From Amoebophrya sp. A120 (lineage: Eukaryota; Protista; Dinoflagellata), in assembly GCA_905178155.1 (NCBI GenBank), contig CAJINV010000001.1, forward strand, positions 2,904,089 to 2,968,088: a stretch of 64,000 nucleotides of DNA, in the 5' to 3' direction. Under the pieces are notes generated by a model. The model saw only the letters and a list, made by a program, of their open reading frames with translations. It was not told the DNA's origin and made no database searches. This document shows, piece by piece, positions 8,460 to 58,136 of this stretch (within the stretch, counting starts at the first letter, position 1; each line of letters begins with the position of its first letter). Position numbers and translations under genes: made by a program.

Positions 8460-11400
8460 TCATCGTTTCTGTTTCACCTGTCGGGCCCTTGCTGCGAAGC
8501 GCAAGCTCATCAAACTCTCATCTAGCATCGTCGAACAGGGGCTCAGGTTGACGAACATCAATGTTTTCGCACTGCCGCCCAGACTGTCCTGCATCAGCTG
8601 CGTGAGTTTGTGATTCCTGTACGGGATCGGGATCGTAAAAGAATTTCCACCGCCGTTTTGCTGCAGCTCCCCAGTTGTACTAGATAGAATTTCTCGCTGC
8701 TCCCCGCCAACAGTAATTTGTTCCTGCGAATCCACGGAACTCAGTGTGGCGGTGCTGTGCTGTGTCTGCAACATTTTCTGTCCGGCAACAATCGCTTGTA
8801 AAACATCCCCGAGTGCGGAAAGAGATTTGTTGATCTCCACTGCTTCGCGCATTGCAGCCCCGGTAGCCCCGGTCTTCTTCAACCGCTCGGAACCCGCAAG
8901 ATCGCAAAACGTGATCTTGCTGCTCTTTCCCGAATATCAAATGTAAAAATGTCTGGGTCGTCTGGAAGATTGCAACTTGTCATGCTAAATCTGCAGCATG
9001 CAAAAATCTGTGTTGCATGATTGCCAAAAGTCGCCCAGTTTTGAACAAGTCGGGAGGTAGTTTCTCATGCAGGATAGGCATTAGAAAGGTCTCGCAGAAT
9101 CTGTCATGCTAGGTCCGGCATTCCAGACCTCATGGGTCATGGCAAACCTGCATGACAAGTCCTACATTCTTCCAGACCCAGACATTTTTGCAATCCATAC
9201 TGAAAATCGGCTGTTCTCTTCGGACGAGTCGCGGAAGTGCACGGAGAGGACCAAGTGACTGCGACTGCTGGCGTATCCTGAGTAAAAACGTACCCACACC
9301 AGAGTCAGGATGGGGATTTTGCAACACAAACCGAGGAGTTCTGTGAGTCACGCATGACAAGTTGCACTCTGCAGTGTAGTGCAGGTTAGCAAGCGCAGCC
9401 GCATCACAGATTCGTCTGCTTATCCTGTTCACAGCATCACAAATTCCAAAACACGATTGGAAATGGCTCTCATGGGGATGCGCGGTACAAGTCTTCCTGT
9501 CTTTGCAAATCTGCATTACAACTCTGGTCTGGGGACGTTTTTGCTCAGGATATGGTGCTGTTCACCGCCGTGGCCGCGGTTTTCCGCAGTTTCACACCGA
9601 GATTCAAAATTTCGAGCAGCTCTTCCCGGGATTTCACTCGCCTCTCCGTCGCGCCCGGAACGCGGACCTGCCCAGACCGCGGGGACAGTTTCACGACCAA
9701 ATTGCTGTCCTGTTGGAGTTTTCCGACATCGTTGGCAGTCGAAGCGGTGCGGCTCGCGAGAAAGGAGGAAAAGCTGTCACCGCTAGCCCCTGCCGGTGCA
9801 GCAGCTGCTCCGGTCACGGATCCCGCACGGGAATGTGCCGGGCTGCTGCCGCGACTGTGATTGAGGTTCTGCTGCTGCGCTGCCCCCCCGTTGGAGCTGC
9901 TTCTGCGGCGCAATCGAGACACGTTTTGCGTGGAGAGGCGTCCGCGGGTTGGTTCTTGGTCATTATTCGCTGCAGCTGTTTCGGCTGCGGAACTTGTGGT
10001 TCCGAGTGCGCTGCGTGCTGACAGGGAGCGGCGCAGCTCGCCAGAGCCCCCTGGCCGAAGTTCTGGCACGAAGTCGTGGTCCACAAGCAAATCGCGAAGC
10101 TTTGTGTTGTGGAGTTCGCACATGGTGACGAATACCTGGCGCGTCGCGTACCGCTGGTTTTGCTCCAATAGGTTGAAAATGTGGTTTATCGTCCGCGGAG
10201 CCACGCCGGCATCACGATTCAGTGCCGTCGGCTTTTTACCAGTTACTTCGCCTCCAGCAGATATGCTGCTCCTTGGCGTGTTTTTTGCGCTGTTATTTGC
10301 AAGTCCGCCTGAAATTGTCCCCGCTGCCACCGTGGTTCTTGCCGGTGGATTGAACGAGCCTGATTCCGCTACCCCGACTCGCCGCGGTGATGTTGAAGGC
10401 ATTCTGGTAGCATGACCTGAAGTAGACGACGAAGAAGTGGGCTCAGTTGTTGTAATTCCGTTTTGCACCCCCGTTCCACCAGTCATTGTTCCGTTCGACC
10501 ACGTCGCAGCGCCGCCCTTAGAAGTACTACTCTTCTCCGTGACCGCCCCCGATCCGAGCAAGGTGTACGTTTTCCCCGCGCCAGTCTGCCCGTAGGTGAA
10601 AATGCAGACGTTGTAGCCGTCCAACGCGCTTTGTACCAGGTCCGCGCGCTATCAAATGTAAAAATGTCTGGGTCTGGAAGATTCTAAACTTGTAATGCTG
10701 TCTCTGGATTCGAAAAAAATTTGTATTGCATGACCTTCTTTACCCCTCAACCACTGTACCCCCTTTACGATCGCTGCCTCTGGGCAGGACCTCGGGGGGA
10801 TAGGGTCAAGCTCTAACGGGGGTCGGACCCGAGTGAAACCGTTAGAGTGGCAGCATGTCCTGGTCGATTCCGGAAATTCCATGAGCACGGTTACGTTTCC
10901 AATGGTGAAACCAAGCAAAACACGAGGAACAGACAAAGACGAAGGTCAAGGGTGGAGCAGATAAAACGCTGGGGTCTCCTGCAGCTGAAGAAAAGCGTCG
11001 CTGAGCGACTGGACTGGGGTCTCCTGCAGCCCAACAAAAGCCCTATTACAGTGGCCGCGATAGGGACCCCTCCTAGGACTACAAAAAAACACGACCAGCA
11101 GCGAGGAGACGAATGTATGACCAACAAAAGGACTCCAGTTTGTGCTACGTGGAGAGGGCATTTCTCATGCGGTAGAGGCATCACAAAGTCCCCTAAAAAT
11201 CTGTGCTGCTAGGGCATGCATCACAGACATCATGTTCATATCATGGGTCATTCAAAATATGCATGACAAACCTGGCAATCTTCCAGACCCAGATGACATT
11301 TTTGCAGTTGATACGCACTCCTCAAAAATGTCCGTCTGCGTCGACGACGGACCGAATACGGAATCGAATTCGAAAGTTTCCGCCTCTCGGTGCCGACGAA

Positions 11401-14400
11401 CGTCCGACGTGCTGGTGCCAATGGTGACGTCAGACTGCGAAAATTGCAGCCCTTCGTCGGTACTTTGATCCTTTTTGGCGAGTGCAGAATTATTGCCGTT
11501 TGTCAAGGGAGACCGCTGCGCAAGTTTTTCGCGTTGCGACATCGGACGAATGCGGGCGTAAACGCGGACCGCGCCCTTCAAGTCCTGGATTTCGTTGTGC
11601 AGCCTCCGTCGGACGGCGTGCGCTTGCCGCAGAACGTCGGGGGGTGCAGAGGTGGTATTCGCCGACGAGTGGTCTTCCAGTAGCCCAATATGTTTGCTCA
11701 AAAGCCGCGTCACCGCAGGCAGAAATCGTAGAGCATAGAGATTGTGGTGCTGGAAGAAATTCCGTGTCGCGGAAACGCAACTGTTCATACCCCGGGCGTA
11801 GTCGAGGATTGTTGGCAAGTGCGACAGGATCTTTTCCAGGCCGCGCAGGTGCTCGAAGATGGACAAAACGGATAGGGGAGAGCAGTGGAATTCCATGGCA
11901 GTCTTGCACAGCGCTTGCAGCTCCGGATCCTTCGTGCTGCCTTGATAGCCCGAATTTGGAGCGTAAATAGCTGTTGCCTGTGCAAGCAGGTCCGCTTCCT
12001 TCTGCAACACCCTCCTCAACTCTGCTAGCCTCTCTTCACCGACTCTCGTGTCTGCTTTCGCAACTGTTTTTGCTCTTTCCAAGGCGTTTTCCAACAGAGT
12101 TGTATCCCTCGTCGTTTCCCACAATTCATCGAGTTGTGCCTGCGCGTCTTGCAATCCCTGAATTCGTTTTCGGAACTCCATGCCCTTGTCGCGACAAGCA
12201 CTCTCCAAGGAGGTTCTCTTCGTCGTACGAGAGGCACTACTAGTTCCACTGCTGCTGCCTAGGACCGTACCAGCGGAACCAGCGGCAGAGGGTCGTCGCG
12301 AGGATCCACCAGGTTGCGAAGAAGACGAGGCGCTGCTGGACGAGGATCCGCTCGCGTTGTTCGTTGGTGCAAGCTGCTGCAACTGGGTCAGGAGGAATTC
12401 GACCTGAGCGGTTGGTAAAGGTTTGGAGATGTCCACGTTGGTTACCAAGTCTTCCAGCTGTGAAACCAATTCCGCACAACGGGACTTCGATGCTTGGTGT
12501 TTTGCCTGCTTTTCCCGCTCCGCTCGTTTCTCCTGCAAAGTCCTTGTCCGCTCGCGCGACGCGCGCTGGATGGTAAGTGGGTGCACGCCGGCCTCTCGCG
12601 CTTTTTCCACGGCGTTTTGAAACTCAGCATTGTCCTCTGTGCTCGTGGCAGCGAAAAGCGCGACCTTCGCGGCGTCCTCCAGCAGCTGTGCTTTGCGACG
12701 TTCCGCCTTCTGCAGCTGTGAACCGGAGGCGCCAAGCTGTTTGGCTTTGTCAATCAAATCTGCGATTTGATCGGCGGAGGCCTTGGTTGCGGTTCCGCGG
12801 GTCTGTGGCTGCGAGCCACTTCTTGTTTCCACCAAGTGCGGTGGCTTTATTTCGCTTGTTGGGTGCGCGGAGAGCGCGTCTTCAAGAGCACGCAAAGCTT
12901 CTGCCAGCGGTGTGACAGCGACACCTGGAGCGTTTTGCCCAGCCAGTCCGATTGTTTTGTTCGCACTAGACGAGGTTGCCCGCTCGAGCGGCGATGGGTG
13001 TCTCTTTAGAATCCCGGCCAAAACAGGCTTGTTTGCCGCGTTTGGAGGTGCAGCAGTTGATGAGGCGGGCCTCGTTGCCGTAGTAGTTCTGTAGCGCGAT
13101 GACCCTACCTCTCCCGCTGCACCAGATGGTCGCGTGCGAAGCAGGCCGCTGGCGGAGGGCCGCCGAGTCTGAAGAGACGGGCGAGGAGGTTGGTTTGCAT
13201 TCGACTCATGATGTCCAGGAGGTCCTGCCGGCGGCACGCTCGTCGTGCCTGTAGTTGGTGCGAGCTTCGTCGAGTGCGTTTGCTGATAGTTGCCCGGTTT
13301 CTTCTTGCTTTTTTCTGCTTTCAGCTGTTGCAGGCGCTCTTTGAATCCACGAAACGCAAGCCCGGACGAGGCGACCGAGGATTTCGTTTCGGCGTTCGGG
13401 GGCAGAGAGCCCGTCTCATCTACTTGATCATGATGGTGTTGCTCTTGGTTGTAGGGAGCCGTACCCGTAGTTGCTGTTCCTGCATGATCAATCCTTTGAT
13501 CATCTAACTGCGGGGAAGATTTCAACAATAGTGCAGCGTTTTTCTCTTCGGGAACTGATCCCTTTTCAACATCTTCCTGGTAGTTCCTCTCCTGCTCTAA
13601 CCCACTTCCGGTCTCAAGTTCCAGGCCTGAGCGCGGGGTCTTGTCGTCGTTTGCAACTCCGACTAGCGACGAGGACAAAATGCTGCTGTGAGTGGCACCA
13701 CCAGTCGACCGATTCGCCTTTAGCCGCTCGCGAAGCGCTGCCAGTCGTTGTCCCGGGCCGCTTTTTGGTTTTGCGAAAGAAGAGGTCCTTGTAGCAGCTT
13801 CGTCGTCTTTTGTGGGAACGTTCATCGCCGCTGCTGGGAGCGCGGGGGTTTGGGCACTTTCGACAGTTGTAGACTGCATCGCAGGTGTGGGTGTTGGTGC
13901 AAAATGCAGCGTGACTTCTTCCAATTTGCTTTTCTGTTCTGCTACCAACACCTCCGGCGCATCCGCATTCTGCTTGTTGCTTTCATCATCGACGGCAAGT
14001 GGTAGAGGCGATGGTGGTCCTAACTCTGCGTTCAATGCGGCAGCGGGATTAGCAGAAGAGTATGGCTCGCCAGGTTTTTCTGTTGTGTTCACAGCACTGG
14101 TTTCAACTTCATCTATCTTGCTTGCTAGCTCCGGAATTACGGACAAATCTGGTACGGACAAATCCGGATCGTCCTCGTCGAAAAGCACCGCTTCGTCGTC
14201 TGCTTTGCGTAAATCGGACAGACTTCCCCGTTCCGCAACATTCGTAGAGCCCCGCTTTTTCCGTGTGGTTCGCTTGCGACTGCGGGCGCTCTCCGCGAGT
14301 TGATGCTCTGTCGGGATGGGGTGGTGCGGATTCTGCACATGGAGGTGCTCGGGCTGTCGAGCTGCCGTGGCAGCGACGGCTTCGCTTAGAAATGATTCCA

Positions 14401-19396: not shown

Positions 19397-20320
19397 CTTA
19401 TCGCCGGTTATCAATCACTACTACTGGATTTTTGGGTTCTACAAGTTCCTGAGTGGGAAAGGTACAAAAAAAATCCGCAGTTCTACATGGAATTCATTGG
19501 GGGGTATTCGCGTCGTTTTGCAATGTCGTGACAAAGCAACGAAAAATGGAGTCTGACCGAGAAGTTGTAGTTCTTCAGGTTGACATGATCATGTGGCGTC
19601 CCTTCAATTATTTCCTACTCCGAGAGCGAGACACATCGACGTCGTTATCATCTCCATTGCAGAAAAACAATGAGGAATTTTTGGGTCTAAACGACGATAG
19701 TATATTTCGTGCACGTTGACCCCAGCTGGATACAGATGATGACACAAACATACACGACAAATCCCGGTACGTTGAGTTAACGAATATGGATTCCAGCATA
19801 ACCACACCACGAATCTATCTAGTCGCAGCCAAAACTCTCACTCACGGCTCGCTCTCGCGACCCCTCGCTCAGATCTCGGTGTCAGTCTCACTCACTCAGC
19901 AACAATTCCGATGGAGCTCTTCGTCAGAAACAGAATGAAGTGAAAAACTTTATTAATTACAAGAACTGCTACTGCTCTGTGCGTGTGCTGTATCACACCC
20001 AACAGACGATCAAGCAAACAAATCTCTCAGTAAATTTGCTGCAGCTCTAGATGCGGTAGTAGGACTTCCTAGCACGATATTTGTACAAGTATCGCTCTCT
20101 TCTATCCACTTCTCAGCTTATTTGCTTAGGATCTACTCTTTCTGACATAGTGCAGAAGGTCTCACGTATGTTATTCTGTCTGGAAAAATGGGAAGCAGCA
20201 CGCACCAGCAGCTGCAGTTGTAACACACTGGTATGCTGTGGAATAGCAGAAATACTGCTGACCTTTGGCTTTACAAACAAAGAAAGCCTTACTCCAAGGA
20301 GCTTGAAACTGAAAGTAGTA

Positions 20321-26207: not shown

Positions 26208-26349
26208 GATGCTGGTGTCGTAACGCAACAGATCTCTAAACTTTGACTTGCATTTACTTCTTCATCTTCACCAAGTACATTAGCTTTACAAATGCCTTGG
26301 CCCACGCTGTCTTGATGAAGATTTAGAGGCGCACTCATTTTCAGCTCTT

Positions 26350-26371
26350 GTTGAGCCACAATGGCTGCAGT
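26350..26371 (-). other. Degenerate dinoflagellate spliced-leader relic
   Basis: Minus strand ACTGCAGCCATTGTGGCTCAAC versus DinoSL DCCGTAGCCATTTTGGCTCAAG (18/22). It lies in sense orientation about 140 bp upstream of the katanin ATG. Confidence 0.6.
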
Positions 26372-28460: not shown

Positions 28461-31277
28461 TCAACTGGCCATGACCACCTCGATCTTTTTCCTCGTTTTG
28501 AGCTTTGGTGCCACGGATTGGTTGCTGACCGCTTGAATGGTGTTCTCCTCAGCCTCCTGTTCTCTTTGTCGCTTCAAACTACCCGTCTTCGCCCCGTCCT
28601 TGATTTCTGTTTCCAGAGGCGCTTCCTGTGCCATTTCCGCTTCGAAATCCTTCAATTTCAGTTCATCTGGGAGCGTTTCCCGGGTGCACTGCGTGATGAA
28701 GAGGTCCTGCAAGGATTCGGAGTAGTTCTCTTGCTTCATCATCATCTGGATTCCCTCGCAAAATTTCTCGACCGCGGGCCGCAAGTCTGGCGGGTTGCTC
28801 TTGGTTTCCTCAAGGTCGAAAGTCTCTTTCGGAAAACTGACGCCGACAAACATCTGCTTCCCTTGCGGGAACGTCCTCGTGATGTTCTCCGAGTCGGGAC
28901 CAAGCGGGAACTTGTCCGGGCACGGATGGAGTTCAACTCCGGGAACCATCTGCTCGATCGTGCTAAAAAGGCGACGGAGTTTACTCTCGACGAAGCCCTG
29001 TTTGAATGGATTCATCCATTTCTTGATGTGATGTTTTTCCCTATGAGCCTGCTTGTAGATGTAGATCAGATAAAACAGAATGAGACGCAAAACTTTTTTC
29101 ATAGCGTATGAAAGAATGTATCCACAACTGTACCTCCCATCTATTGAACGCGGTCGGATTTCTCGCGAGGAGCTGCACTCGCAAGTACTGCCGGTGCATG
29201 CCGAAAAAAGGCGCTTTGGCGTACACATCGCTCCACTCCTTGCTGCCCTCGAAGACCGCCTGTGTGTAGGCCCGTGCGCGCTTGATTTCCGCCTGGATGA
29301 CGCGTTTTGTCGCGGGGAAGACGTTGTGGGTGGAGTTCATTGCGGGAAAGGCGGGCGTGATGATGGGCATCAGGTGCTGTCGGTCGTGCGGGCTGTTGTG
29401 CGGGTTCCACACACGCAGGTGGTTCAACCCTGCTTTTTCGCCAATCTGGTCAATGGTCTGGAGCAACACTGGTCGCTCGTAACCCCAGTTCCACTGGTCA
29501 TACACCTGGATTTTTTATGAAGTGATCAATTGTTTCTGCACAAGCCCAGCCACAAGCTCAAACTCAGTTGCAATTCAGAAGTAACTACTTGAATTGTCTT
29601 ACATGTGCTACGAGGCTCTCGCTTTAGGTTTAGTTTCAGCCGTCAACGTCAGCACGCGAAGAAAAAAAAGTTTGTTCTGTACCATGAAAAACCGGTGGAC
29701 GATCCCTGCGGCGTTGTAATTGGGGTAGAGCTGGCATATTCTGGCGACCAGAATCGCCCACACGATACCGCCGAAATAGCCCAGCATGTTGTTGGACACC
29801 CCTCGTCGCTTGCTCCAGTGCTTGATGAAGCGCAGGGCAATGCGGAAGACCTCCACATTCGGCACCAGCCGCAAGATCATTTCGTTCACACGGTTTCCGT
29901 TGATCCCGCGGGCACTCTTCTCGTCGAGCCCGACCAGGAGGGTGTCATCCTGTGGGGAGGGATTGGTTTTGTCTCAGTCACAGGCACCAGAAGTACACAT
30001 AGCGGATCAAAGACACAAGTGAAATGAAGAGAATGCGGCGCTCTGACTTCAGAGCATGATGAAAAAGCAAACAGACAGAACAAAAAGTACCAGTAGTGAA
30101 TCCACGTCCCGCAGGTGCGGCAAGTTCAGCCTCGCGAACCCCAGATCGACCGCTTGGCCTTCGATCATCATTTCGATGAGAGGCGTGTGCGCGGTCTCGA
30201 CCGGGTTGATTTCGGACATTTTGAATTTGTCCTTCACCTCTTCCAGTTTCGCGACCAAATTGTTGAAAAAATGCTCCCGGGTGATGTGTTTGGGCACTAT
30301 CAAATGTAAAAGTGTCTGGGTCTGGAAGACTTTGAACTCTAGAAAAATCTGTATTGCATGACCAGCAAGAGGAGTCTAGTTTGTGCTACGCGGGGAGGGC
30401 GTTTGTCATGCGGAGTAGGCATCAGGAAGCCCGCTGAAAATCTGTGATGCGCGGTCGTGCATTATAGACATCCTGGGTCATGCAAAACATGCATGACAAA
30501 TCTCAGAATCTTCCAGACCCAGACACTTTTACATTCGATAGGCACCACGCAAACGCAATCGATATCGCTGTTCGGTGCCATCACGCCGAGCTTCATACTT
30601 CCGAAGAGAAAAATATGGCGTTCTCAACTGTTACATTCTCAAGTGTTACATGGATTTGTCATGCAAGAATGGGAAAAGTGAAAGGGGGGAGGTTGCATCT
30701 GTAGCATTACAAATTCCGAACAGATTTGGGCGCTGTTTAGCCATTCGCAAATTTGTCATGCGAAGCAGCTTGATCGTGTGGATCTTGATGATCATTTTGC
30801 ATGACAAATCATGTAACAGCTGAGAATGTAACGTTTGAGAACGCCATAAAAAATCTTCGCGCTCGCGAATCGTGCGTCGGACTCATCCAGCTGGGCGGCT
30901 TGCATGCCGATCTGCAAAATTGTTTGATTTTTCACATGAGTTTGCGCTAGGTATTCTGATACATAGATTGGAATCCAATTCCAAAGTCGCTATCAGCAGA
31001 CAAAAGCCATTGAACTGTTTGACGAGTCAACCTCAACATTAGAAGCTTTTCTTACCTCCATGGCCCATTCTCTGACCACTCCTTCTAAGCTCTTCAATAT
31101 TCTGGCTCGCTTTGCCTCCCCCTCTTTCGTTTCCGCCGGTGCGTCCCGGTCCAGCGCTTCCACCATGGGTTCCAGCTGGGATCGGGTTTCCACCGGCGTC
31201 GCGCCCGCGTCGATGGGATCGGAGACACCCAGCGCCACATGGGGCTGGGTGCCGTCGGTGTTGGTGCGCGTGTTCAT
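28461..31277 (-). CDS. PAP: Canonical poly(A) polymerase. Exons 31277-31056, 30911-30849, 30608-30541, 30292-30091, 29949-29683, 29505-29134, 28997-28461
   Basis: FGSMKLGV..SDIDCVCVVP, AVDLGFARL, INGNRVN, LRFIKHWSKRRG, LGYFGGIVWAILVARICQLYPN, MPIITPAFPAMNSTHNV and WEGFVESKLR. Four GT-AG introns and two TIR introns. Confidence 0.93.
30298..30540. mobile_element. TIR introner, family A (PAP intron 3)
   Basis: TIR TATCAAATGTAAAAGTGTCTGGGTCTGGAAGA and its inverse. Perfect TSD GTGCC/GTGCC. Removal gives VVP|KHITREHFF. Confidence 0.92.
30614..30848. mobile_element. TIR introner, family C (PAP intron 2)
   Basis: ~50-bp TIR TATGGCGTTCTCAA..GTTACATTCTCA..TGTTACATG.ATTTGTCATGCAA. TSD TTTTT/TTTTT. Removal gives AKIF|LFGS. 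Confidence 0.92.
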
Positions 31278-32104
31278 CGGTGTCGTTCTAGCTACTCCCG
31301 TGGATGCCGAAAACGCTTCATTATTCGTGAATAAGCATGATCACGGTAAGGGTAACGCTAGCGAAGAGGAATGAGTTTCAAGTGAAATAAGGTTAAACTT
31401 CATGGACATGGTCATGGAGGACTTCTTGTTGCTTTACCTTGTTTTGAAACAGCGCTGTGCAAAAACGTTTAAGTGTATTCAGGATTTTACTTTTAGTTTT
31501 AGTTATAGCTCAGAGTTGAAAAACAAAAACTCGTCATCGACGTACATAATCGAGGATGCAGCCACCTCTTTGTCTGATCCTACAAACGCGATCGCCATCA
31601 AGATCAACTACAAGTTCGTCTTTACTTGGATCTCAAGGACAAAGACCAGCGCGAGCTTTGAGTGCTTGAGTATCACTGGGAACCTTTTGGTCGTCGTGGT
31701 AGGAAGATCGCGGTTTTGCAAAATGGTCGTGCTTGCACTCTGCATCTTTTACCTGAAACATCTACTGCCCAAAATCATGAAGATCTACTACGTGTATCGC
31801 AGTCGGTACAGTACTAGCAAGGAGCGATCATCAAATCAGGTCTCATCTCAGCAGCAATGGAGAACATGAAAAGCCGCATCCTTAGCCAGCATGGAGGCTG
31901 CGACGGAGCCGTGATTTAGGGGCGTCTCAGTCTTACGCTGGAGTCTACTACATGGATGGGTCTTCAATCAGAACTGATTGAGCAAAAAAATCTCGAGCGT
32001 AAATGTTACATCTGAATGTGATGAGTCATGCTATTCGTTTTTGTATTTGTTTTCCGCATTCCTTTGTTTCCTAGATATTGATATTCTGTAGTGCCTATGC
32101 ATGG

Positions 32105-38603: not shown

Positions 38604-40733
38604 TCATCTGTGGAACTGGTGTCTCGAGCCTCGTATACGTTTTTCATCAGACTTCTTGCGCGTCGCGCCACCCCTGCTTGCGTTGCGTTTCCTGGTGCTG
38701 CTCCTCGGCGCGTCCCGGGACGCAGCTGCGCTCTCATGCTTTGAGACCAAGGTAGCCTGCTTGTCCGCTTCCGCTCTCATCTTTTCGCGCCACTCGGTGT
38801 CCATCCGCGTTTGTGGCAGGCTTTCCTCGTGTGTGTCGTCGTACTCGGTCTGTTTCAAATTTTCCGGAAGTCCAGCCCAGGCACATGGCATGATGATCAC
38901 GTCTTGCTCGGGTAGTTCTGGCGAATTCGGATCGTTTTCAAGCCACTCCCAATATGCGTGGTCCTGCCATTGTATCTGCAACCACTCGCAGAAGTCACGA
39001 AACACTTCGGCAAGCAGGACGGGTCGGTTTATGTCGCTCAAAACTCGTCGTGTACCTACTGTGCTCACAACTCGAATAAACATCTGCACGCCACACCGAT
39101 AGTAGTTGCGACGCAAGGCCGCCGCCCTGTGGTCGTCCCCGAGCGGAAACATCTGGGGCCAGGGACGCAGCACAACCTTGTTCGCAAAGGTGTGCTCCGC
39201 CATGGAGAAGAGACGACGCAACTTACTTTCCACGAAGCCCTCCCACTGGGCGAAGCGTTCCTCCGTTCTCGCAACGATCATGATGCGAACATAGTCATCC
39301 GCGAAGAGGGGACCCTTTTCGTTCTCAGAGGTTACACGTGGCAAAATTTCAGCACTTCCTCCTTGGTCTGCCGGTGCTGCATGTGGTAAAGCCGGTTTGG
39401 GTTTTGCAAAAAAGGGCGCTGGCGCATATACGTCGCTCCATTGTTTCGAGCCTTCAAACACCAGCTGCGTGCATTGCCGAGCCCTCCTGAACTCCGCTAC
39501 CAGCGCGGCCCGCGTCGTTTGTGTCACATTAAAAGTAGTGTTCATCGCGGGAAAGGCTGGTGTTATCACTGGCATCAACTCTGCTGACCCTTCCGGATCC
39601 CACACGCGAAACGCGTCTTCATTAACCGCCCGCAGTGGCCGACGCAACCGCCAGCCAGTGCTACGTGGGGGAATAGCGGTTGCCTCGCGGATCGGTGACA
39701 GCAGTGCTGGCGCTTGCGGGCCCCAGTTTTGCCTTTTCCTGTCGCAAAACACGAAGAAGCGATGAACGATACCCGCCGCGTTGTGATTTGGGTAAAGCTG
39801 GCATACTTTTGCCACCAAGATCGCCCACGTGATGCCCCCGAAAAAACCGAGCTTGTTGCTGGAAAGGCCGCGGCATTTCGCCCAGTGTTTGACGAAGCGC
39901 AGCGCCGTACGGAAAACGAGTTTATTCTCACCTGGTACGCATGCTAAGATCGCAGCGTTGGTACGATATCCGTTCAGACTCCGCACACTCTCTTCCTCGA
40001 GGCCAATCAGCACAGAATCGTCAAGAAGATTTGTCTCTGCAGCTGTGAAATCGAGAGCGTCGACGTCTAGCCTAGCAAAGCTAAGATCGATCGCTTGGCC
40101 CTCGATGCGCATGGATATAATGGGCGTGTATGCGTGCTCCGCGGAGACAATGTCGGAAATCCTGTACTTTTCGCTATACTGCTTCAACCTTTTGACCAGG
40201 TCCCGGAAAAAATGCTCCCGCGTGATGTGCCTCGGCACCACACAGACGCAGTCAATGTCACTGGACTTTGTTACGACGCCCAACTGCATGCCGCCAAACA
40301 CGAAGAGTCGAACCAGGTCGGATTTCGTAGTTCGCGCTGAACAAGAACTTCTTGTCATCTCTGGGTTCTTGTCACTTATCCTCGGGATATCCCTCGCCCA
40401 CTTCTGCAGAACGCGGGTGAGCGACTGGCTGAGGATTCTGTACCGATTCGTTATTCGCGCTGGCGCCTCGCTGGGGGCGTCGCGGTCCAGGGCCTCAAGA
40501 AGACCAGGTAGATGGAGATTGTCTACAGGTGGAGAGTCGCCGACAGTGCACGGCTCAGGTTCTGAGCGATTTTTCCTTGCATATCTAGAATGATCATCGC
40601 GGCCCCCGTGAGTAGAACTGGTGTACCGCGTGGTCGGGTTGAAGCGGTGGACCGGCGTTGCGGTGGAAGTAGCGGCAGGCACGTCGTGCTTGCCCGCACG
40701 TCTACTCGGTGTCGGGCTCAGCTCAGCCTGCAT
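38604..40733 (-). CDS. PAP: Second poly(A) polymerase, intronless paralog
   Basis: FGGMQLGV..SDIDCVCVVPRHITREHFF, AIDLSFARL, SLNGYRTN, LGFFGGITWAILVAKVCQLYPN, MPVITPAFPAMNTTFNV and WEGFVESKLRR in one 709-aa ORF. Confidence 0.93.
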   Translation of the reverse strand: MQAELSPTPSRRAGKHDVPAATSTATPVHRFNPTTRYTSSTHGGRDDHSRYARKNRSEPEPCTVGDSPPVDNLHLPGLLEALDRDAPSEAPARITNRYRILSQSLTRVLQKWARDIPRISDKNPEMTRSSCSARTTKSDLVRLFVFGGMQLGVVTKSSDIDCVCVVPRHITREHFFRDLVKRLKQYSEKYRISDIVSAEHAYTPIISMRIEGQAIDLSFARLDVDALDFTAAETNLLDDSVLIGLEEESVRSLNGYRTNAAILACVPGENKLVFRTALRFVKHWAKCRGLSSNKLGFFGGITWAILVAKVCQLYPNHNAAGIVHRFFVFCDRKRQNWGPQAPALLSPIREATAIPPRSTGWRLRRPLRAVNEDAFRVWDPEGSAELMPVITPAFPAMNTTFNVTQTTRAALVAEFRRARQCTQLVFEGSKQWSDVYAPAPFFAKPKPALPHAAPADQGGSAEILPRVTSENEKGPLFADDYVRIMIVARTEERFAQWEGFVESKLRRLFSMAEHTFANKVVLRPWPQMFPLGDDHRAAALRRNYYRCGVQMFIRVVSTVGTRRVLSDINRPVLLAEVFRDFCEWLQIQWQDHAYWEWLENDPNSPELPEQDVIIMPCAWAGLPENLKQTEYDDTHEESLPQTRMDTEWREKMRAEADKQATLVSKHESAAASRDAPRSSTRKRNASRGGATRKKSDEKRIRGSRHQFHR

Positions 40734-41342
40734 TAGGTTTATTAGGATGTTGTGCTGGAAATCTACATGGGATCGCTGTATTATTTTACAAACCTATTAT
40801 ATTAAGGAGCCAAAGTACTTAGTTTGAGTTTCAACTCCACCCTCATATTAATTGAGACGCAACTTCCACTCCTTCGTTTCCCATGGGCAACACGAAGTGC
40901 GAGTTCTTACTGAATAAAACACGATAAAATACTCAAACGGCTCTCACTGTATTTGACTTGAATGACAATGACGACCACGACTGAAAAATGAAGACGACAG
41001 CTCGGCTGACTTTGTGTACGGCTGAGCCTGCAATATATAATGGATCCTGTGACCACCATGTATGACCTCCTCGTTTCTGGTTACTAGACATCGATCTGTA
41101 GTTCGCCAGCGGCTGAACAAGAACGAAATGCGATGGTGCGCTGCATGCATGAAAATGAAGAACAACAATAAATGAATTTGAAAGGTCCCATTTGAAAACA
41201 TAATTGCATCGAGGGTTTACCTTTAGGCTTTTTAGCTGGCTTAAAAAAATCATCCAGAAGTGGTGAAAGTGTTTTCCCCTCGACAAACGGAAGTGCTTGT
41301 TGTGCCTCGCTTTTTATTCTTCACAACTTTATTCACATCAAT

Positions 41343-45357: not shown

Positions 45358-48300
45358 TCACCGTGTGCTGACGTCCTTCGGTTCTCGGGCACTGCAGACG
45401 AAAAAGCGGTCTCCACTCTTGATATTCTGACAATTGTCGTCGTTCCAGGTGTTGTCCTTGCGCAGTACGGCGCAGTCCTCCTTGCCGCCCCAGTCGTTGG
45501 GCTCGCCGGGGGCCCAGTTGGCCTTGTGGTATTTTTTCAGCAACTGATTCTTATCCGCCGTGAACCACGCACCCTCGGTGTACTTGTCGTGCGCCCCGAT
45601 GAACACGTCTTCGCGGCCGGCGAGCATTTTTACGAACCGTTGCTGTCTGCTGCTCTCCACGATTGCAAGGGTCGTGCCCGCCGGGCATTTCCCCTTCCCG
45701 TCTTGGTTCGTACCGTACTGGTACGCAACGGTGCCGGCGCACTTCCACTGTTTCTTCCCACATTCGGACTTCGGGTCAGAGGCGGCGTACTTGTAGACGG
45801 AAAGAGCCGACTCACCCCCGCACATCCACTCGTCCGCGGTTTTCACGGCCGACTTGTCGGCGGACAAGCAGGCGGACTCCATGCACCGGTCATCGGAGAT
45901 CTTCGAGTAGCCGTCCGTTCGGTCGGTGCAAGCGCATTTCCTCCCGTCTAGGAGGGCGAAGAACGTGGTGGTTGCGCACTTTTCGCTGCAAGCCGCAAAA
46001 GTGTAGTCCTTGTCAGAGTGGATCTGCAGGCTCTTCGCGCTGTCCTTGCTGAAGCAACCGGCAAAGGAAACGTCGGCTGAAGTTGTGACTCGATATCGAT
46101 TTCCAAGAAAATGAAGCGTGATTGGCAGGCAATCAAAAGGCAATACGAACAATAAGCTCGTGAAAAGCATGTGGTGATAGCGATACATGAAGATTGATTT
46201 ATAGCAATTTACCTTGGTGCTTGTACACACTGTTTCGCCAGCCACTGCCACACATCAAGCTCTCGTCGTGCTTACACGGTTGGCACTCGTGTTTCGGCTT
46301 TTTCGCAAAGTCGACCGCGTTACCGCACCAACACTCCCCGCCCGCCTGCACTGCGAAGAACTCGTAGTTGTGACACCACACGTTGCAGGCTTCCGGGGTC
46401 GCTTTCGCCCACCGCTTTCTCCTCTTGCCGCCGACCCAGGGGCCGAGCCGCGCTGGGAGATCGCGGTCGCCGTTATCCTCGTAGCACCCCTGGTACTCGG
46501 GTATGAAGTTGGAGCAGAGCTTTTTTTTACTGTCAAAGCTGAACCCGTAGTCGCACCCGTTCGGCGCGCACTGCTGCGCGCCGTGCTCCGTGCACATGGC
46601 TCCCTTCGCGGGCTCGCCGTGCTTCGGGCAGAAACATTCGTTCTTCTCGCACTTGCCGTTTTCGAAGTGGTATCCGACCGAGCACCCCTCGGGGAGGCAG
46701 ACGTCCGCCCCGTCCTTCGGACAGTTTTTCCCGGTCGGTCCCTTCCCGTGCGCGCAATTGCAGGTGTTCTCGACGCAGGCGTCGCGATCCAGGTGAAACC
46801 CGGCGTGGCACGAAGCGCACACGTCGTCCCCGTTGTGCGGGCAGTGCATGCCCTCCGCGCCGTTCCCGTTCTCGCACCCGCACACTTTCGGCTTGCAGGT
46901 GTGGGTCTTCTTGTCCAGCGCGAACCCGTATCCAGGGAAAAACACCCATCCCCAGCCATTTTTTGCATGACAAGTAGTGAATTTTATGCATGTTTTGCAT
47001 GACAAATTGGATGCGGATGGGTGTTTTTTCCTGGATAATCCGCCGTCGCAAGAGCTGCACTTCGCGGTTCCGTGCTCCTCGCACTCCGCGCCCATCGCTC
47101 CAAGCCCGTTTTCGCAAGTGCACTTCTTCTGCTCGCAGGTCTTCTCGTCGGTCAGCGCGTAACCCTCTTCCTCGTTGCACGCAGCGCAGACATGCGCGTC
47201 GAAGTGGGGGCAGCCCACGCCAGTCGCCGGCTCCCCGCCGTTGCAGTAGCACTCGTTCTGCACACAGAAGCCCGGGGGGCCCATCCCGAACATGAACTCC
47301 GCGCCCGGGTTGCACTTCGCGCACATTTCCGTCCCGTTCGCGTGGCAGTCGGTGCCAGTGGCGCCCTTTCCAAATTGGCACGTGCACTGCTTCAAGTCGC
47401 ACTTCTGCGTCTTGTTGTTCAGAATGTACCCCTCCTTCGTGTCGCAGCTCGCGCAAACCTCCGCACCGTCCAACGGGCAATTCACCCCCTTGGTGCCGAC
47501 CCCGTGGTTGCAGATGCACTCCCGGACTTCGCACTTGTCACCGACCAGGTGGTAGCCGGCCGTGACGTTGCAGCTTTTACAAGTTTCCGTTTTCGCGGTA
47601 AAGGCCTCCTTCGGACACTCCGTCAACTTTTTCGGCACGCCGTTCGGACAGCTGCAAACGCGCTCGACGCATTTTCCGTCTTCCAGTTCGTAGCCCGGGT
47701 CGCAGGAGGCGCAGAGCGGCTCCTTGTGGACCGGGCACTTCGTGTTCTTCTCCCCGGCGCCGTGTTCGCAAGTGCACTGTTTTTCCACGCACTTGTCGTC
47801 GATTAGAACGTACCCGTCCTGGCAGCTCATGCACTTCGGGGCGAGGTGTTCGGTACAGTTCGCGCCACTCGCGCCGGCGCCGTTGTTGCACGTGCACTCG
47901 TTCAAGTCGCATTTGTGCGTCGTCGTGTTCAAATGATACCCTTTTGTTGTGCACTTCACGCACTTTTCGTCCCCCGCCTTCGGACAGGTCGTCCCAACCG
48001 CCGGTTCCCCGAGGTCGCAGACGCACTTCCGCTTCTTACAGTCCCCCTGCTCCAGGTCGAAACCCGGGTCGCAGGTTGCACAAAGCGGGGACTTATGCTT
48101 GCCGCAGGCTTTTCCCTCCGCGCCATGTCCATTCTCACACGTGCACTGGTTTTTCACGCACTCGTCGCCGATCAGCGTGTGGCCCGGCTTGCAACTGGTA
48201 CATTTCGGCTTCCCGTGCTCCGGGCACAAAGCCCCTGTCGCCGCCTTCCCCTTGTCGCAGGTGCACTCGTTCACGACGCAGATGTCCTGCTTGTTCATGT

Positions 48301-50641: not shown

Positions 50642-51044
50642 GTTCTGGCACCAGGTCAGGGAGTGTATTGTCATACAGGTTTTTTCCGCGGCCACAGAAT
50701 GTACGTTGCCATTTTGCTCCGCCCGCTGGCAGAAGGGACCGAAGAGATGCCTCTTCGAGCTCCGCCAACGGATCTAAGAAAAAGAGTGCATGTGCTGGAG
50801 TCAAGCAATAGATCGTTAAAGTAAGACCACCGGAACAAGTGCTGGATGGACAAGATCGTGTTGAGACAAGTCCCTCGTCGCTCATCGCTCTTGGGATCTT
50901 TTCCAGCTCTTGCGTTCGGATCAATAAACTGAACACTACGTGCACGTCGCTCGTCGTTCTCATGGCGACCAAGACATCAAGTTCAAGATCAAACGTACTT
51001 TTTACGTAGTTAGCACTACCGCAAACTACAGGGATTCTTCATCG

Positions 51045-52502: not shown

Positions 52503-53202
52503 GGTGATTGCGTTTGCGACGTCCTACGCGTTTGCTTAAAAACAAGATACGTACTGTACAGGCAGGGCGAGCAAAAATTACCCCTTCTAGGCAGTGTCAC
52601 ATTCAACATCCAGGCTGAGAAAGCGAAAAACTATCCTGCAACAAGCATGAAAATTCAGTTGGAGTTGCGTCCTCGAGTCCCTCGTGGTTTTGGGTACAGC
52701 ATGTTACATCCAGCTGGCACAGAGAATATTAACGTGCCATCGGCAACATGCTTTGAGCGGGAATTGCGACGAGACGGGTAGTACACACGACAGCAACGAC
52801 ATTAAGATCCAGGTATAGTTAACACTTTTTCCTCCAAATCATGTGGACAGGATCTTTTTCGTCGCTTGGGGGCCAGTGCTGGCTCCCGCCAAATATGTTG
52901 AGACTTTTTTGTTCGATCTGATTTCGAAAGTCGTGTAAACTTGATTCGTTAAACTGTACCCAAATAATAGGCGTAGAAGTTGTCGTGTCCGTGCGCGAGA
53001 AAGTATCCATCGTTATGTTTGTACCTGAACTGCGACTGCTTTTGAGCTCGAAGAGGGTACTAAGGAAATCAAAAGGGCCCAAATAGCGGCCGAAGCTGGC
53101 TCGGTAATGAGTGGTAAGACGTGGTACTATCATCAATCTGAGTTCGTATATCTGATATCAACACTTTACCCGGAGCGGCATTTACCCTTACCCTATTAAA
53201 AG

Positions 53203-54489
53203 TCACGCACCACCCGCCGCTCTGTTCCGGTTCCGGATCTCCTCGATGGTGAGATCGCAATCGTCCAGCTCGATGTTGTTTAGCTTGATGATTTTCTGCA
53301 CCCGGCGCAGTTCCGTGATCGAGGGGATGGCGAGTTTGCCGATGTCCTCCGTCGGAATGTGTTCGTGCATCGACCGCATAATCTCCACGTTTGTCGGTTC
53401 CTTCTCGTACTGCTCATCCCCGATGCGTCGCCCGGCCGCGATTTTGATATCCGTCAAACGGTTGTTCAGGTCCAGAAACACCGCGGGTAATAAGTTGTCA
53501 AACTCGATGTCCCGCCGGGGCGCGCACATGAGCAAGGTCGTTTGAAACTTGAAGAACAAATACGGAACCGGTTGCATCCGGACCACTTTGCCGCCCGGCG
53601 ACTCTTCCGGCAGGTCGCCCCAAAAGTTGTCCGGGCCATCTTCGAAAAACACCGGGGTCCACGGTCCGCCGTTCACGCGCTCTTGGCGGCAGTTGTTCCG
53701 GAACTCCTCCTTGAAAGCGGTGATCAGTTGCGTCCCGTGCAGGTAGCCTAAATTCAGCCAGTTCGCACAAGCGGAATTCTTGTCCTCCCACAAGTTGTTC
53801 TTGTTCGTTTTCCGTTCGTACGCGAGCAATTTCGCCGCCAAGACGGCTTCGTTGATGTCGTTCTGCGTTTGCTCCCGGCTCAAATGGCACTCCGGATCCC
53901 CGGGGCCGATGGATTTCCCGTAAATCTCGATCTTGTCCTTCTTCACCTCCTTGAACAAGCGGTACCCGAGCGGCCGCTTGTTCTCCCCCGCTTGCACATC
54001 GTGTCCGATGTACAGGCAGAAATTTTCAAAGTCGTAATCCGCCACATCTGTGTCAACTTCATTCGCGCACAAGGCTTTCAGATTTTTCCACAAATCCTCA
54101 TTGTGCCGTCCCGCGAAGTACAGCCAGAGAGTTTTGGGAAACGTCGCGAAAAGATGTTTTTGCTTTTCCTGCTCGACGCTGGAGGGTTTCATCTGTTGTG
54201 CTGGATTGCTACCATCACTTTCTTGGCGCTCCACTGCTCGTGCTGTGGATTTTTGCTTGTTCTTTGCCGGTGGAACACCAGCTCCCAAGTGCGGATTGGT
54301 ATTCTTGTTCTGTTGAAGATGAAGATCTACGCCATTTTTCAGTCGTTCCTTGTCACTGCTCCTTCCGGTGTCGTCTGTTTGTCCAGGTCCTCCCGGGGAC
54401 TCCGCTTCCTCGTCCGCAATGTCTTTTCCGTGCTTCAGTTTGTGCCGGAAAGCCTCCAGCTGCTTCTTGTTGATACGCTTCGGCGCCAT
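53203..54489 (-). CDS. Hypothetical protein X (full-length, intronless copy)
   Basis: ~428-aa ORF from MAPKRINKK. Its 5' half is duplicated at 57296-58136. Confidence 0.8.
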   Translation of the reverse strand: MAPKRINKKQLEAFRHKLKHGKDIADEEAESPGGPGQTDDTGRSSDKERLKNGVDLHLQQNKNTNPHLGAGVPPAKNKQKSTARAVERQESDGSNPAQQMKPSSVEQEKQKHLFATFPKTLWLYFAGRHNEDLWKNLKALCANEVDTDVADYDFENFCLYIGHDVQAGENKRPLGYRLFKEVKKDKIEIYGKSIGPGDPECHLSREQTQNDINEAVLAAKLLAYERKTNKNNLWEDKNSACANWLNLGYLHGTQLITAFKEEFRNNCRQERVNGGPWTPVFFEDGPDNFWGDLPEESPGGKVVRMQPVPYLFFKFQTTLLMCAPRRDIEFDNLLPAVFLDLNNRLTDIKIAAGRRIGDEQYEKEPTNVEIMRSMHEHIPTEDIGKLAIPSITELRRVQKIIKLNNIELDDCDLTIEEIRNRNRAAGGA

Positions 54490-56111
54490 GGTGAGCGACA
54501 AATTGCTGGGGGGGAAATATACGTTTTTCTCTTCACAATCACAATGTTAAGAGGTTGATCATGATGTTCCCATGATTAATATCGAATCATCACTTCCTAC
54601 TTGCCTCGCTATGCTGGCCAGCAAATAAATTAGGTAAAGCTATACGTGGTTGGAGTTGGTTTACTTTTACTTTTTCGGTCACAACAACCCACTACTTGTA
54701 CTTACTTAAACTTATAATGTCCATCTGCAGCAGAAACTGCAAGATCTTGTTCTTCATCGGCAACAGCACATTCCAAACACGAATAGTCACGAGGTAGGGT
54801 CGTCATGCTGTTAGCAGCCCCACGTCTAACTGTGACATCAGATCGCTGTGGTCCTCGCTGCTCAACTTCTTCAAAATGCTGTTGCAATATGTTGAACCAG
54901 GATGCTTGTCCGCGTCTGCGATCCGTTGGTCGAGAAGAAAAAGCGCATGCAGTTGCAAGTTAGTAGATCTTGTTGGATAGCCGCCACAAGGAAGTAAAGT
55001 AGACCATCAAAACGTAGTTGGTGTGTTGAAGACGTTGAAAAGCACTGAAAAGCGGATCGCTTCTAATCTACACTTCTCCTCAACTAGAACTCATCATGAC
55101 GCACTGGATGGATCCTGTTAATGCCGAGATTGATCTTCTTAATCCCGCGGTCTAAGACACATCACACCGATCTTCTGTGTCACTAGTCGTGTGGCGTGTG
55201 CCATGTTGATCTGTCGCGTCCATCATGGTGTAGCTCGACTGAATCACGGTAGACCTCTTTTGCTGCATCAAATTCATCCTGCTCGCGAACAACGACAAAA
55301 TGCGTCTGAACACTTGCAACCCGAGCGCAACAACGGCGAATCGTCTGGCCGTGGTGAAGCTGGAGGTGGAGAATATTCTGAAAAGAAATCATAATCATGA
55401 AAAACAAAGAGCAAAAAGTCAAATCGTTCAAATAAAGTTGTCGTGTGTAAGTTTAAAAACTACAGAAGTGCAGGGGCATTTAGATGCCGTAGATATGAGA
55501 GCTTCGGTGGGGTAATTTCTGAACCGTCTAGTAATCGCCGGTTAGTCTGTGCATCCATTTTTCACATTGATATCCTAAATGCCATTTAGCTATGATGTCG
55601 GTTTAATTTTAGAAAAAGCAAGCGACTTTCTATTCATCTATACGGCTGATAGATTCCACTAGTATTGATCTTGATGTCACAGCACTCCAGGGAATTTCTA
55701 TAGTTTTTCGCGTGACTCAAGGCTTTGAATACAGTCCGTAAAAGAGAAAGAACGTAAGGCTGATGATTCGGTGTGTTTACGTTTAGAGTTTGAGTTTTAT
55801 TTCGGTTTTTCATCCTACACGATGTTGGGCTAGGGCAAATTAAAGATGATCATAAGATCGTAGACATTGACATGATCTGAAAGAGTAAGACAGGAGGTGT
55901 GCTCTAGTGCTTCAATCAGGACGGTTACTGTACTTACAGCAACCACAGGACAAGAGATTATCTCATAAGGGTGGTAGAGAGAAACGAATTTCAAAGCCAT
56001 CGATACAGCACTTGTTCATTTAGTCTTGATGTAGCTACGCCGTGAAGGTAAAGGATCCGCGCCCTTCTTGAGCGTGTGCGTCCATGCCAAAGTGTTCGGC
56101 GAAGGCTTCAT
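53936..56111. repeat. Tandem duplication copy 1 (5' half of gene X + intergenic DNA + 3' tip of gene Y)
   Basis: Collinear with 57296-59685. For example, 55600-55740 is near-identical to 59165-59305. Confidence 0.93.
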
Positions 56112-58136
56112 CTTCTTCACCTCCTTGATTCCGTGTTTCCTTCTTCACCTCCTTGAACAAGCGGTACCCGATATTCTGCGAAAATTTGTCACCGTCACCG
56201 TTTTGCCATGTTCATTTTTCAACCCAAAAAATTTGATTTTTTCCTGGTATCCCACGCATGCTCATGTCGATCAGTTGTTGCAAATGTGGCATGCGAGGCA
56301 TTACACTTGGAGCATGGTCGTGGCCCGGGTAGTTGAACGCAATCCAGAAGCGCCCCGGAATGGCTTCGCCGCCGTACAGACCGAAGACGCGGCGCGGGAG
56401 GGTGCGTTGCGAGGAGGCTGTCTTCTGGCGCGTAGGGGCCCGACCCTTGCTGGGGCGGGCTTCTGCATGGTGCGGCTTGCGATGTTGGGTTGCTCCTGGG
56501 AATGTCGGGCTCTTGTTACTCCTTGGCCAAAGGCCTCCGGCAAACGACCTCCACAACCCAGGAAAAAACAGCAAAATTTCGAGCAAATTTAACGACCACC
56601 CGGTGACACATCCCGGAAATTTTGCATTTTGCACGGTATGGTGGACTTTGAGAGCCCAAAATGGGAACCGGTGACAAATCCCGAATTATTTACATTTTGC
56701 AGGGTATGGTGGACGATTGCGCACGAGCCAAAAATTCTTGCGCTGCAAGAAATTTTGGGCAACGCGCAATCGTCCACCATACCGCCCAAAATGTAAAAAT
56801 ATCAGGATTTGTCACCGGTCGCGAATTTGGCTTGGAAACGTCCACCATACCGTGCAAAATGCAAAATTTCTGGGATTTGTCACCGGGTCATCGTCAAATT
56901 TGCTCAAAATTTCGCAGTTTTTTCTTGGGTTTTCGAGACCCTTTGCCGGAGGCCTTTGGTCCAGGAGTGATAGTCTCAAGAGATTCCCAGAAGCAACTCA
57001 GCATGACGCGCCGCACTATTCCGATCCTTCGCGGCCGGAACTCTGGTCGCTGAAGTGTCAGGAGACAGCCTCCCAGCTAGGGACCTTCTGGGGCCGCGGT
57101 TTTGGCTTGTATAACGGCAGCGCCGTTCTTGGATATGTCTGGACGGCCTTCAGCATGCTGGGTCAACATGCTTGGAATGCAGTCGTTGGATTGCCGCACC
57201 CGCAGCATTTGACAGAAATGGACACATATAGGAAATCAGGTAAAAGTCAAATTTTTTTGCTCAAAAAATGAACACGCCAAAACGGTGACGGTGACCTCCT
57301 TGAACAAGCGGTACCCCAGCGGCCGCTTGTTCTCCCCCGCTTGCACATCGTGTCCAATGTACAGGCAGAAATTATGGGAGTGTCAGGATTGAAATCGACA
57401 AAGTTGAAATAACTTGCAATGCATAAAATCGATACCAGTTGGAAGCGCAATTTCCAAGCGGCGCATGACAAATTTAGGCACCATCTAAATCCGGTTTGTC
57501 ATGCTGTTTACGGACAGAGGGCGTCTTTTGTCATGCTGCTTTAGCAGCTCTATCGCAGACCCCAACCACGCTGGCGGTCGGCTTCGCTTGCCATCCCTGC
57601 AAGAGAGGCACCTCAACATGCCTTGCAATTTATGTATGAGAAATTATTTCAACTTTGTCGATTTCGATCATGACGCTTCCATAGAAATTTTCAAAGTCGT
57701 AATCCGCCACATCCGTGTCAACTTCGTTCGCGCACAAGGCTTTCAGATTTTTCCACAAGTCCTCGTTGTGCCGCCCCGCGAAGTACAGCCAGAGGGTTTT
57801 GGGGAAAGTCGCGAAAAGATGCTTTTGCTTCTCCTCAACGCCGGACGGTTTCTGCTGTACTGCATTGCTGCCATCACTTTCTTGGCGCTCCACTGCTCGT
57901 GCTGTGGCTTTTTGCTTGTTCTTTGCCGGTGGAACACCTCCTGCCAGGAGATGCGGATTCGAATTTTTTTCAGCTGCGTCTTTTCCTCCTTCCCTGTCAC
58001 TGTTCCTTCCGGAGGTGTCGTCTGCTTGTCCAGGTCCTCCCGGGGAATCCGCTTCCTCGTCCGCAATGTCTTTTCCGTGCTTCAATTTGTGCCGGAAAGC
58101 CTCCAGCTGCTTCTTGTTGATACGCTTCGGCGCCAT
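56035..58136 (-). CDS. Chimeric X::Y gene (predicted 221 aa). Exons 58136-57684, 57367-57296, 56175-56035
   Basis: Removing the family E introner and a GT...AG intron (56176-57295) gives ...GYRLFKE|NIGYRLFKEVKKETRNQGGEEDEAFAEHFGMDAHAQEGRGSFTFTA-stop. Confidence 0.6.
56188..57295. mobile_element. 1.1-kb foldback (whole-length imperfect palindrome) element
   Basis: Ends GTCACCGTCACCGTTTTG / CAAAACGGTGACGGTGAC. Arms pair inward (GTATGGTGGACGATTGCGC / GCGCAATCGTCCACCATAC) to an apex TTCTTGC-GCT-GCAAGAA near 56742. Confidence 0.92.

Follow-up and report, generated by a model that had tools for sequence, protein, structure and literature searches.

In a 64-kb window of the genome of Amoebophrya sp. 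A120 (the whole stretch of DNA that was analysed), seven introners, transposon-like elements with TAT...ATA ends, six of them seen to be removed from RNA-like contigs as introns, share one internal motif, the 9-mer GCATGACAA. Judged from its sequence context, the motif is probably a phased array of binding sites on double-stranded DNA for one transposition factor shared by all introner families, likely an integrase-type transposase or a helper of one. Three properties together point to a protein that reads double-stranded DNA: the arrays are indifferent to orientation, introns with sites on one strand only are spliced, and the copies at the two ends of an element do not covary.

The motif in the window and in a larger set

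The exact 9-mer occurs 14 times in the window, compared with a mean of 0.73 and a maximum of 4 in 100 dinucleotide shuffles, and all 14 matches lie inside the seven elements, which have terminal inverted repeats (TIRs). With the centre base free, GCAT[GCT]ACAA is found 19 times in the 2,106 element bases and not once in the other 61,894 window bases, intergenic stretches included. An earlier note, made from the letters alone, had listed the 14 positions, each of which is indeed an exact match. Its description of several copies per family in both orientations holds generally, except that only one copy in B is exact (the weight matrix described below finds five, all on a single strand) and that the copies of D are tandem, not inverted; the 109-bp element D does retain two exact copies. 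Each element is bordered by a flush 5-bp direct repeat with 4 or 5 of 5 bases matching, given below as the target-site duplication (TSD):

Introner A1 (family 0): 8935-9199, 265 bp, ends TAT...ATA, TSD ccgaa/ctgaa, within a minus-strand kinesin gene
8977-8985, minus strand: end-facing exact motif of A1, 42 bp from the left end
A1, offsets 73, 127 and 166: further matrix sites
9150-9158, plus strand: end-facing exact motif of A1, 41 bp from the right end
Introner B (family 4): 9274-9552, 279 bp, TSD tggcg/tggtg, five matrix sites, all on the plus strand
9352-9360, plus strand: exact motif of B, 31 bp downstream of a variant site at 9321
9513-9521, plus strand: end-facing variant GCATTACAA of B, 31 bp from the right end
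Introner A2 (family 0): 10650-11313, 664 bp including a low-copy insert of ~400 bp, TSD cgcgc/cgcac
10690-10698, minus strand: end-facing variant site of A2, 40 bp from the left end, with a tandem partner 31 bp further inward
11261-11269, plus strand: end-facing exact motif of A2, 44 bp from the right end
Introner A3 (family 0): 30298-30540, 243 bp, perfect TSD GGCAC, in a poly(A) polymerase gene
30403-30411, minus strand: internal exact motif of A3
30491-30499, plus strand: end-facing exact motif of A3, 41 bp from the right end
Introner C (family 7): 30614-30848, 235 bp, TSD AAAAA, in the poly(A) polymerase gene
C, sites at 30656 (minus strand, offset 42), 30704 (plus strand, variant), 30753 (minus strand) and 30799 (plus strand, offset 41)
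Introner D (family 9): 46929-47037, 109 bp, TSD acccg/atccg, in a gene without a Pfam match
46965 and 46997: tandem exact motifs of D, 32 bp apart, 64 and 32 bp from the right end
Introner E (family 8): 57373-57683, 311 bp, perfect TSD GAAAT, in a gene without a Pfam match
E, sites: a variant 41 bp from the left end, exact motifs at 57463 (plus strand), 57496 (minus strand) and 57528 (minus strand), the last two tandem at 32 bp

By Pfam, the hosts are a kinesin gene (A1, B and A2), a poly(A) polymerase gene (A3 and C) and two genes without a match (D and E), and the window's long open reading frames (ORFs) are on the minus strand. The insert of A2 (~10735-11120) has a contig depth of ~300, compared with 44 in exons, and is therefore a low-copy repeat; related sequence is found in an X6 contig. 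A foldback element of another kind than the introners lies at 56188-57295 (1,108 bp, GTCACC ends, no Pfam match, no exact motif), and a 23-bp direct repeat stands near its ends, at 56147-56169 and 57294-57316.

The larger set comes from at least 139 loci of one related assembly, fetched by a motif-free TIR pattern of family A, for which reason families 0, 1 and 11 are over-represented. Removal of eight redundant loci and trimming of five left 679,023 non-redundant bases in 131 segments. Elements were called by a motif-blind scan for TAT...ATA ends with a direct repeat, TAT being a premise of the scan in the loci; it returned 406 elements, 7 of them the window's, and 1 call in locally shuffled sequence. 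Their median length is 258 bp, and the 5-bp repeat is perfect in 326 of them. Louvain clustering based on coverage, adopted after single linkage had run most of the elements together, gave 27 families, the window's five among them; two singletons that resemble chance calls were kept in the denominators. The B and E families clustered together because both contain an insert of ~880 bp. This insert, 87% identical in part, is present in two introner families (L014 ~465-1248 and L072 ~11690-12548), has no TIR, opens TA-rich on its minus strand and closes with a GC hairpin followed by GTAG; presumably it is Helitron-like.

Exact GCATGACAA is found 472 times in 101,839 element bases (4.6/kb) and 54 times in 517,675 unrelated bases (0.10/kb, about nine times the window shuffle rate), with 3.1/kb in homologous DNA that was not called. 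It is the top de novo 9-mer across families, occurring in at least half of the members in 14 of the 27, and its core GCATGAC reaches 21; of 300 shuffled 9-mers, 288 reach no family and the best reaches 4. In the weight matrix, GCA is followed by T in most cases, next by G, C or T, and finally by ACA and purines, for a site GCAT[GCT]ACA[AG]. At least two matrix sites are present in 399 of the 406 elements and none in 3, and most copies have 4-6 of them, in both orientations. Because the elements themselves served to train the matrix, its counts inside them are biased high; the exact-word counts are unaffected. The six RNA-supported GT-AG introns of the window (948 nt) contain no matrix site. 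A reading of the motif as RBFOX-like UGCAUG is ruled out by the variable fifth base and the use of both strands.

The motif is also more conserved than its surroundings. In the families with at least 9 members, identity to consensus is 0.86-0.96 in motif core columns and 0.70-0.86 in other internal columns, in 10 of 10 families (17 smaller ones were unaligned, and the choice of motif columns on the consensus brings a slight bias). When motifs and the terminal 16 bases are masked, similarity at z of at least 4 survives in 4 of 45 family pairs, and 41 fall below 4. The earlier note's statement that the families share little else needs a small correction: TAT ends, usually an A-rich patch at positions 11-15 (family-weighted A share 0.69-0.83) and the 5-bp TSD are common property, and A and C, alone among the window's five, stay similar after masking (z 5.5). 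A functionless relic of the common ancestry of all families would account for the terminal signature, the TSD length and the 4 alignable pairs, and is nevertheless very improbable: the excess conservation in all ten families largely refutes it, spacer lengths are retained while spacer sequences differ between families, and 41 of the 45 masked pairs have z below 4. The proposal of a common cis-site stands, since the motif is absent from the GT-AG introns, rare in unrelated DNA and conserved in excess. The two outcomes that the earlier note regarded as fatal to it, equal frequency in canonical introns and other DNA, or alignable families without excess conservation at the motif, are the reverse of these counts.

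Insertion and splicing

All seven window elements have inverted repeats of 25-55 bp at both ends; an A stretch after TAT is clear in A, B and D and weak in C and E, whose ends are TATGG. Among 425 strong TIR pairs chosen regardless of the repeat, the mean match of the flanking copies is 0.75 at length 5 and 0.24-0.30 at other lengths (0.26 at length 6). A 4-bp TSD plus one extra base was dropped in favour of the flush 5-bp TSD; length 5 alone stands out. Two empty sites are available: the paralog near 40235 has a single GGCAC and no A3, and the duplicate near 54020 a single GAAAT and no E, so that these elements arrived by insertion with target duplication. Empty sites with one TSD copy, short length, high copy number and the lack of a transposase domain in 21 ORFs are features of miniature inverted-repeat transposable elements. 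Summed contig depth of the elements is ~1e5-9e5, compared with ~44 in exons, and is not a copy number.

The poly(A) polymerase gene at 28500-31450 has four GT-AG introns in addition to A3 and C, and its paralog at 38607-40793 is one frame of 729 codons with none of them, possibly a retrocopy. The local duplicate that supplies the empty site of E (53936-56111 and 57294-59685) is ~79% alike overall and >90% in parts.

From RNA-like contigs, 248 nt are missing at A3, 240 nt at C and 114 nt at D, in each case the element plus 5 nt; six GT-AG introns are missing as well. One X3 contig omits A2 as 10645-11313 (shift 0-3), and for A1 and B, flanking pieces from X3 and X6 leave a 69-nt gap that is the exon 9200-9268. 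The evidence for A2, A3, C and D consists of direct joints or adjacent pieces and that for A1 and B of record coordinates, six of the seven elements being covered. Runs were counted as RNA by an automated guess and by their loss of the six GT-AG introns, none being recorded as RNA; X3 and X5 are a single sample, and the D splice is seen in X6 only. The raw RNA runs X9 and X10 have no coverage of the exons. No permitted shift of the junctions yields GT-AG at the window elements, which therefore have non-GT-AG ends. Where the TSD copies differ (B, A2 and D), the upstream copy is retained in the transcript; under a single rule for all elements, the 5' cut would fall 0 or 1 base before TAT. The base before TAT shows no preference for G. 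The TIR hairpin is strong and brings the splice ends together (z -7.8 in D and -5.3 in B), and it is a likelier RNA feature for splicing than the motif.

Strand, spacing and conservation

Is the motif read in RNA or in DNA? Element strand was called for 291 of the 406 elements by two methods that agree in 114 of 115 shared cases, and a stricter set of 173 is limited to elements that leave an open coding frame when taken out. Relative to transcription, 40 elements of family 0 lie with it and 43 against it, and 13 and 11 of family 4; matrix sites in the 173-element set number 413 sense and 459 antisense. The RNAs of B and D have UUGUCAUGC-like copies only and no sense-strand matrix site (all five matrix sites of B being on the plus strand), and both are spliced, so that what a branch point would require is missing from them. 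In none of the five informative families do the end copies covary; the same variant is at both ends in 2 of 51 family-1 and 0 of 11 family-6 elements, and the copies therefore need not pair as a stem.

The branch-point consensus is UNAC, and an RNA splicing signal could take the form of GCAU-N-ACAA as a branch-point-like UNAC, or of UUGUCAUGC recognised by a small RNA or a splicing protein close to the 5' end. The variable base of the motif does coincide with the N, many elements have a sense copy ~35-50 nt upstream of the 3' cut, and 5' ends lean weakly to UUGUCAUGC in the stricter set (33 versus 19, p 0.07) and in family 9 (7 versus 1). Such a signal is nonetheless improbable, because B and D are spliced without a sense-strand site, GCA[A]NACAA variants disrupt the U, the end copies form no covarying stem and the motif is absent from GT-AG introns. 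In the 291-element set, 22 elements have UUGUCAUGC copies only and 13 have only the other strand (p 0.18; splicing of the 13 is deduced from frames), and the end lean drops to 49 versus 39 (p 0.34). Of the two roles offered by the earlier note, a transposase-type binding to DNA fits the spacing and the strand indifference, and a strand-specific RNA splicing signal fits poorly.

The helical repeat of DNA is 10.5 bp per turn, so that 3, 4 and 5 turns correspond to 31.5, 42 and 52.5 bp. A modal end-facing site (TTGTCATGC when read inward) exists at 34 of the 54 family ends; the first such site lies at 30-33 bp in 13, at 39-43 in 14, at 51-55 in 4 and elsewhere in 3, with none at 34-38. When families 0, 1 and 11 are left out and the plain pattern is used, 46% of the weight falls at 30-33, 4% at 34-38 and 39% at 39-43. 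End-facing sites are present at one or both ends of 313 of the 406 elements. Tandem sites are spaced by 29-33 bp in 19 of 36 consensus pairs, in 9 of 10 families and with differing spacer sequences (the best random window reaches at most 13 in 3,000 trials), and all site pairs fit a period of 15.75 bp, a 16-bp lattice (R 0.60 over 69 pairs, null maximum 0.38). A repeated motif inward of the ends, inverted between them and with its spacing retained, is the feature of a subterminal array. The spacing has one clear exception, family 2 (e.g. L004 15182-15336), 54 copies of ~150 bp mostly without a site 28-46 bp from either end; its consensus has a motif variant within the terminal TATGCATTGCAA and sites at 33, 51, 67 and 98.

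On this pattern it is likely that one protein, needed by all families for their movement, binds regularly spaced sites on the double-stranded DNA of non-autonomous TAT...ATA transposons that are spliced out as introns. Spacings of 31-32, 41-42 and 51-52 bp, equal to 3, 4 and 5 turns, would bring the bound proteins and the TAT end to the same side of the helix, and the aligned proteins would assist end pairing. TIR middles and spacers could then drift freely, and lineages that lose sites or phase would cease to spread. A captured host chromatin or transcription-factor site that helps to keep the elements open or to protect them from silencing, and has no role in their cutting or splicing, would likewise be double-stranded, orientation-free and multi-copy. 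This is quite improbable, since fixed distances to the TAT end would not be expected from it and the plain motif is absent from all window DNA outside the elements.

What selects for the motif, transposition or the host? Private changes amount to ~3% in motif cores (3.0-3.6%; 2.9% in coding insertions), 4% in TIRs and 6.5-7% elsewhere. In the 173 coding insertions, mismatches between the TSD copies are found at 31 of 311 third codon positions (10%) and at 13 of 554 first and second positions (2.4%). The third-position excess is fourfold, above the twofold expected with a free intron copy, and the TSD copy on the intron side may be constrained. TSD class failed as a proxy for age, mismatch counts being near Poisson.

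These rates bear on a use of the array by the host at the level of DNA, alone or alongside transposition, in which a host protein would read it and mark the element for co-transcriptional, U1-independent splicing, each copy being under selection. Such a use is unlikely, though it deserves to be taken seriously. It explains the same double-stranded, orientation-free grammar; coding insertions have 2.9% private change at motif cores compared with 6.5% at other sites; and if the 10% third-position rate is neutral, motif cores decay more slowly than neutral DNA. Many of the 54 motif matches outside the elements resemble uncalled or decayed introns by eye, 4 of 7 close pairs among them retaining a spacing of 31-33 bp. 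U1 was undetected in A25 or A120, according to the text of PMC7789003. On the other side, if 2.4% is the neutral clock, motif cores decay near the neutral rate, elements with an imperfect TSD are slightly poorer in sites (0.956 +/- 0.027 versus 1.01 +/- 0.011), the TIR hairpin by itself joins the splice ends, and the comparison of coding with non-coding insertions had only 4 usable non-coding elements. Since the 2.4% and 10% clocks bracket the motif rate, conservation through transposition and conservation after insertion are not separable by it, which is why the host alternative retains some probability.

The candidate factor and related systems

A number of observations weigh against a phased array for a transposition factor. 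On the side of strand, the stricter set leans to UUGUCAUGC-only elements (17 versus 6, p 0.035), and orientation is skewed in family 9, that of window element D (7 to 1), and in family 1 (14 to 28), these being values with no correction for multiple tests. Covariation among TIR positions 4-10 of the same element is seen in 4 of 9 families and may reflect subfamily structure or pairing. The ratio of private changes in motif cores to those at other sites, 0.45 (confidence interval 0.36-0.55), fits selection after insertion equally well. As for spacing, 93 of the 406 elements have no end-facing site at 28-46 bp, most of family 2 included; the Rayleigh statistic on end offsets is equally strong for periods of 9-11.5, so the offsets are two clusters ~10 apart that do not fix a period of 10.5; at 1.5 turns, the 16-bp lattice departs from a simple same-face arrangement; and the families are related by descent, which makes their spacings non-independent trials. 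Finally, the protein itself is missing: there is no autonomous element with the same ends among the matches listed in 679 kb (well under 1% of the ~115-Mb genome) and no transposase domain by Pfam in the 21 ORFs of long elements, where one weak DUF hit fell below the cut-off. In the text of PMC7789003, two putative transposases are given for A25 and none for A120, and general mobilisation by transposase is disputed. The absence of a transposase counts against the proposal unless the enzyme has diverged or been lost in A120.

Searching for long elements by orphan ends gave short uncalled copies and chance pairs among the matches listed. Rfam had no match in the window, and a pattern search of viral_contigs for cognate ends found none; genome_contigs gave one match in a bacterial metagenome-assembled genome, with no matching second end within 3 kb, and it was taken as chance. 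The integrase-type class of the putative enzyme would follow only from the TA..TA ends and the 5-bp TSD. Ginger2/TDD elements terminate in TGT..ACA, a feature unmatched by the TAT...ATA ends found here. Their TSD of 4-5 bp, as described in the text of PMC10045372, is matched. The IS3EU/GingerRoot elements in the available text of PMC10045372 and PMC12730594 have TA..TA termini, and fungal IS3EU TAYGG..CCRTA resembles the TATGG ends of C and E; their TSD, unlike the one here, is 6 bp, and membership therefore fails on this feature. The best lead to the missing protein is A120 family 38, which the text of PMC12130899 (Gozashti et al. 2025) files as Ginger, "5-bp TSD, TA/TA Termini", with TIRs of ~50 bp, a length of 808 bp and Copia/Gypsy-like ORFs. 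The likeness lies in the 5-bp TSD and TA/TA termini and is one of description, not of compared sequence.

The arrangement is reminiscent of the subterminal transposase-binding arrays of piggyBat and, as cited in the same source (PMC11707139, from its available text), of Ac, Tol2 and Tn7, where short repeated motifs lie inward of the ends and are usually read as aids to end pairing. Unlike those arrays as that text presents them, one motif and one spacing rule extend here across many families with differing TIR middles, and are known from sequence alone. The elements also differ from them in doubling as non-canonical introns.

The window elements have the features of A120-type introners: terminal inverted repeats, a border direct repeat, TAT with an A stretch, and non-GT-AG splicing. 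The shared orientation of the genes and the GC content likewise agree with PMC7789003 and PMC12005148. As published by Farhat et al. 2021 (PMC7789003, in the text available), A120 introners start with TAT, ~seven variable bases and an A stretch, have direct repeats at their borders, a hairpin, non-canonical splice ends and a mean length of ~240 nt, and fall into many families, about 30,000 introners in some 2,000 families. That text gives terminal inverted-repeat and direct-repeat motifs only, the direct repeats being of 3-5 nt with an offset, whereas the TSD here is a flush 5 bp; an internal shared motif with a spacing grammar is what is added. The motif string is absent from the main text and the searchable supplement text of PMC7789003, figures aside, and no description of it was found in the literature text, a scope that leaves out figures, some supplements and subscription papers; a single match to it in print proved to be an oligo-dT adapter. 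Introners are thus already known, and their shared internal site and spacing rules appear to be undescribed.

Two questions about A120 are concerned, both raised by the text of PMC7789003: what moves introners without a transposase, and by what means they are spliced, given that their end dinucleotides are not fixed and that U1 went undetected. One internal site under a strict spacing rule suggests that the families are clients of one factor and not many transposons. The motif array could serve as bait in a pull-down, as a signature for the autonomous element and as a target for mutation in a minigene, and the motif aids the recognition of such introns in annotation. It is a tentative and rather unlikely extension that one protein, reading the helically phased array in essentially all TAT-type introner families, both assembles the mobility complex and marks the element on chromatin for U1-less cutting at TAT...ATA in either orientation. 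If true, intron definition would be written in a DNA-bound protein and not in RNA splice signals.

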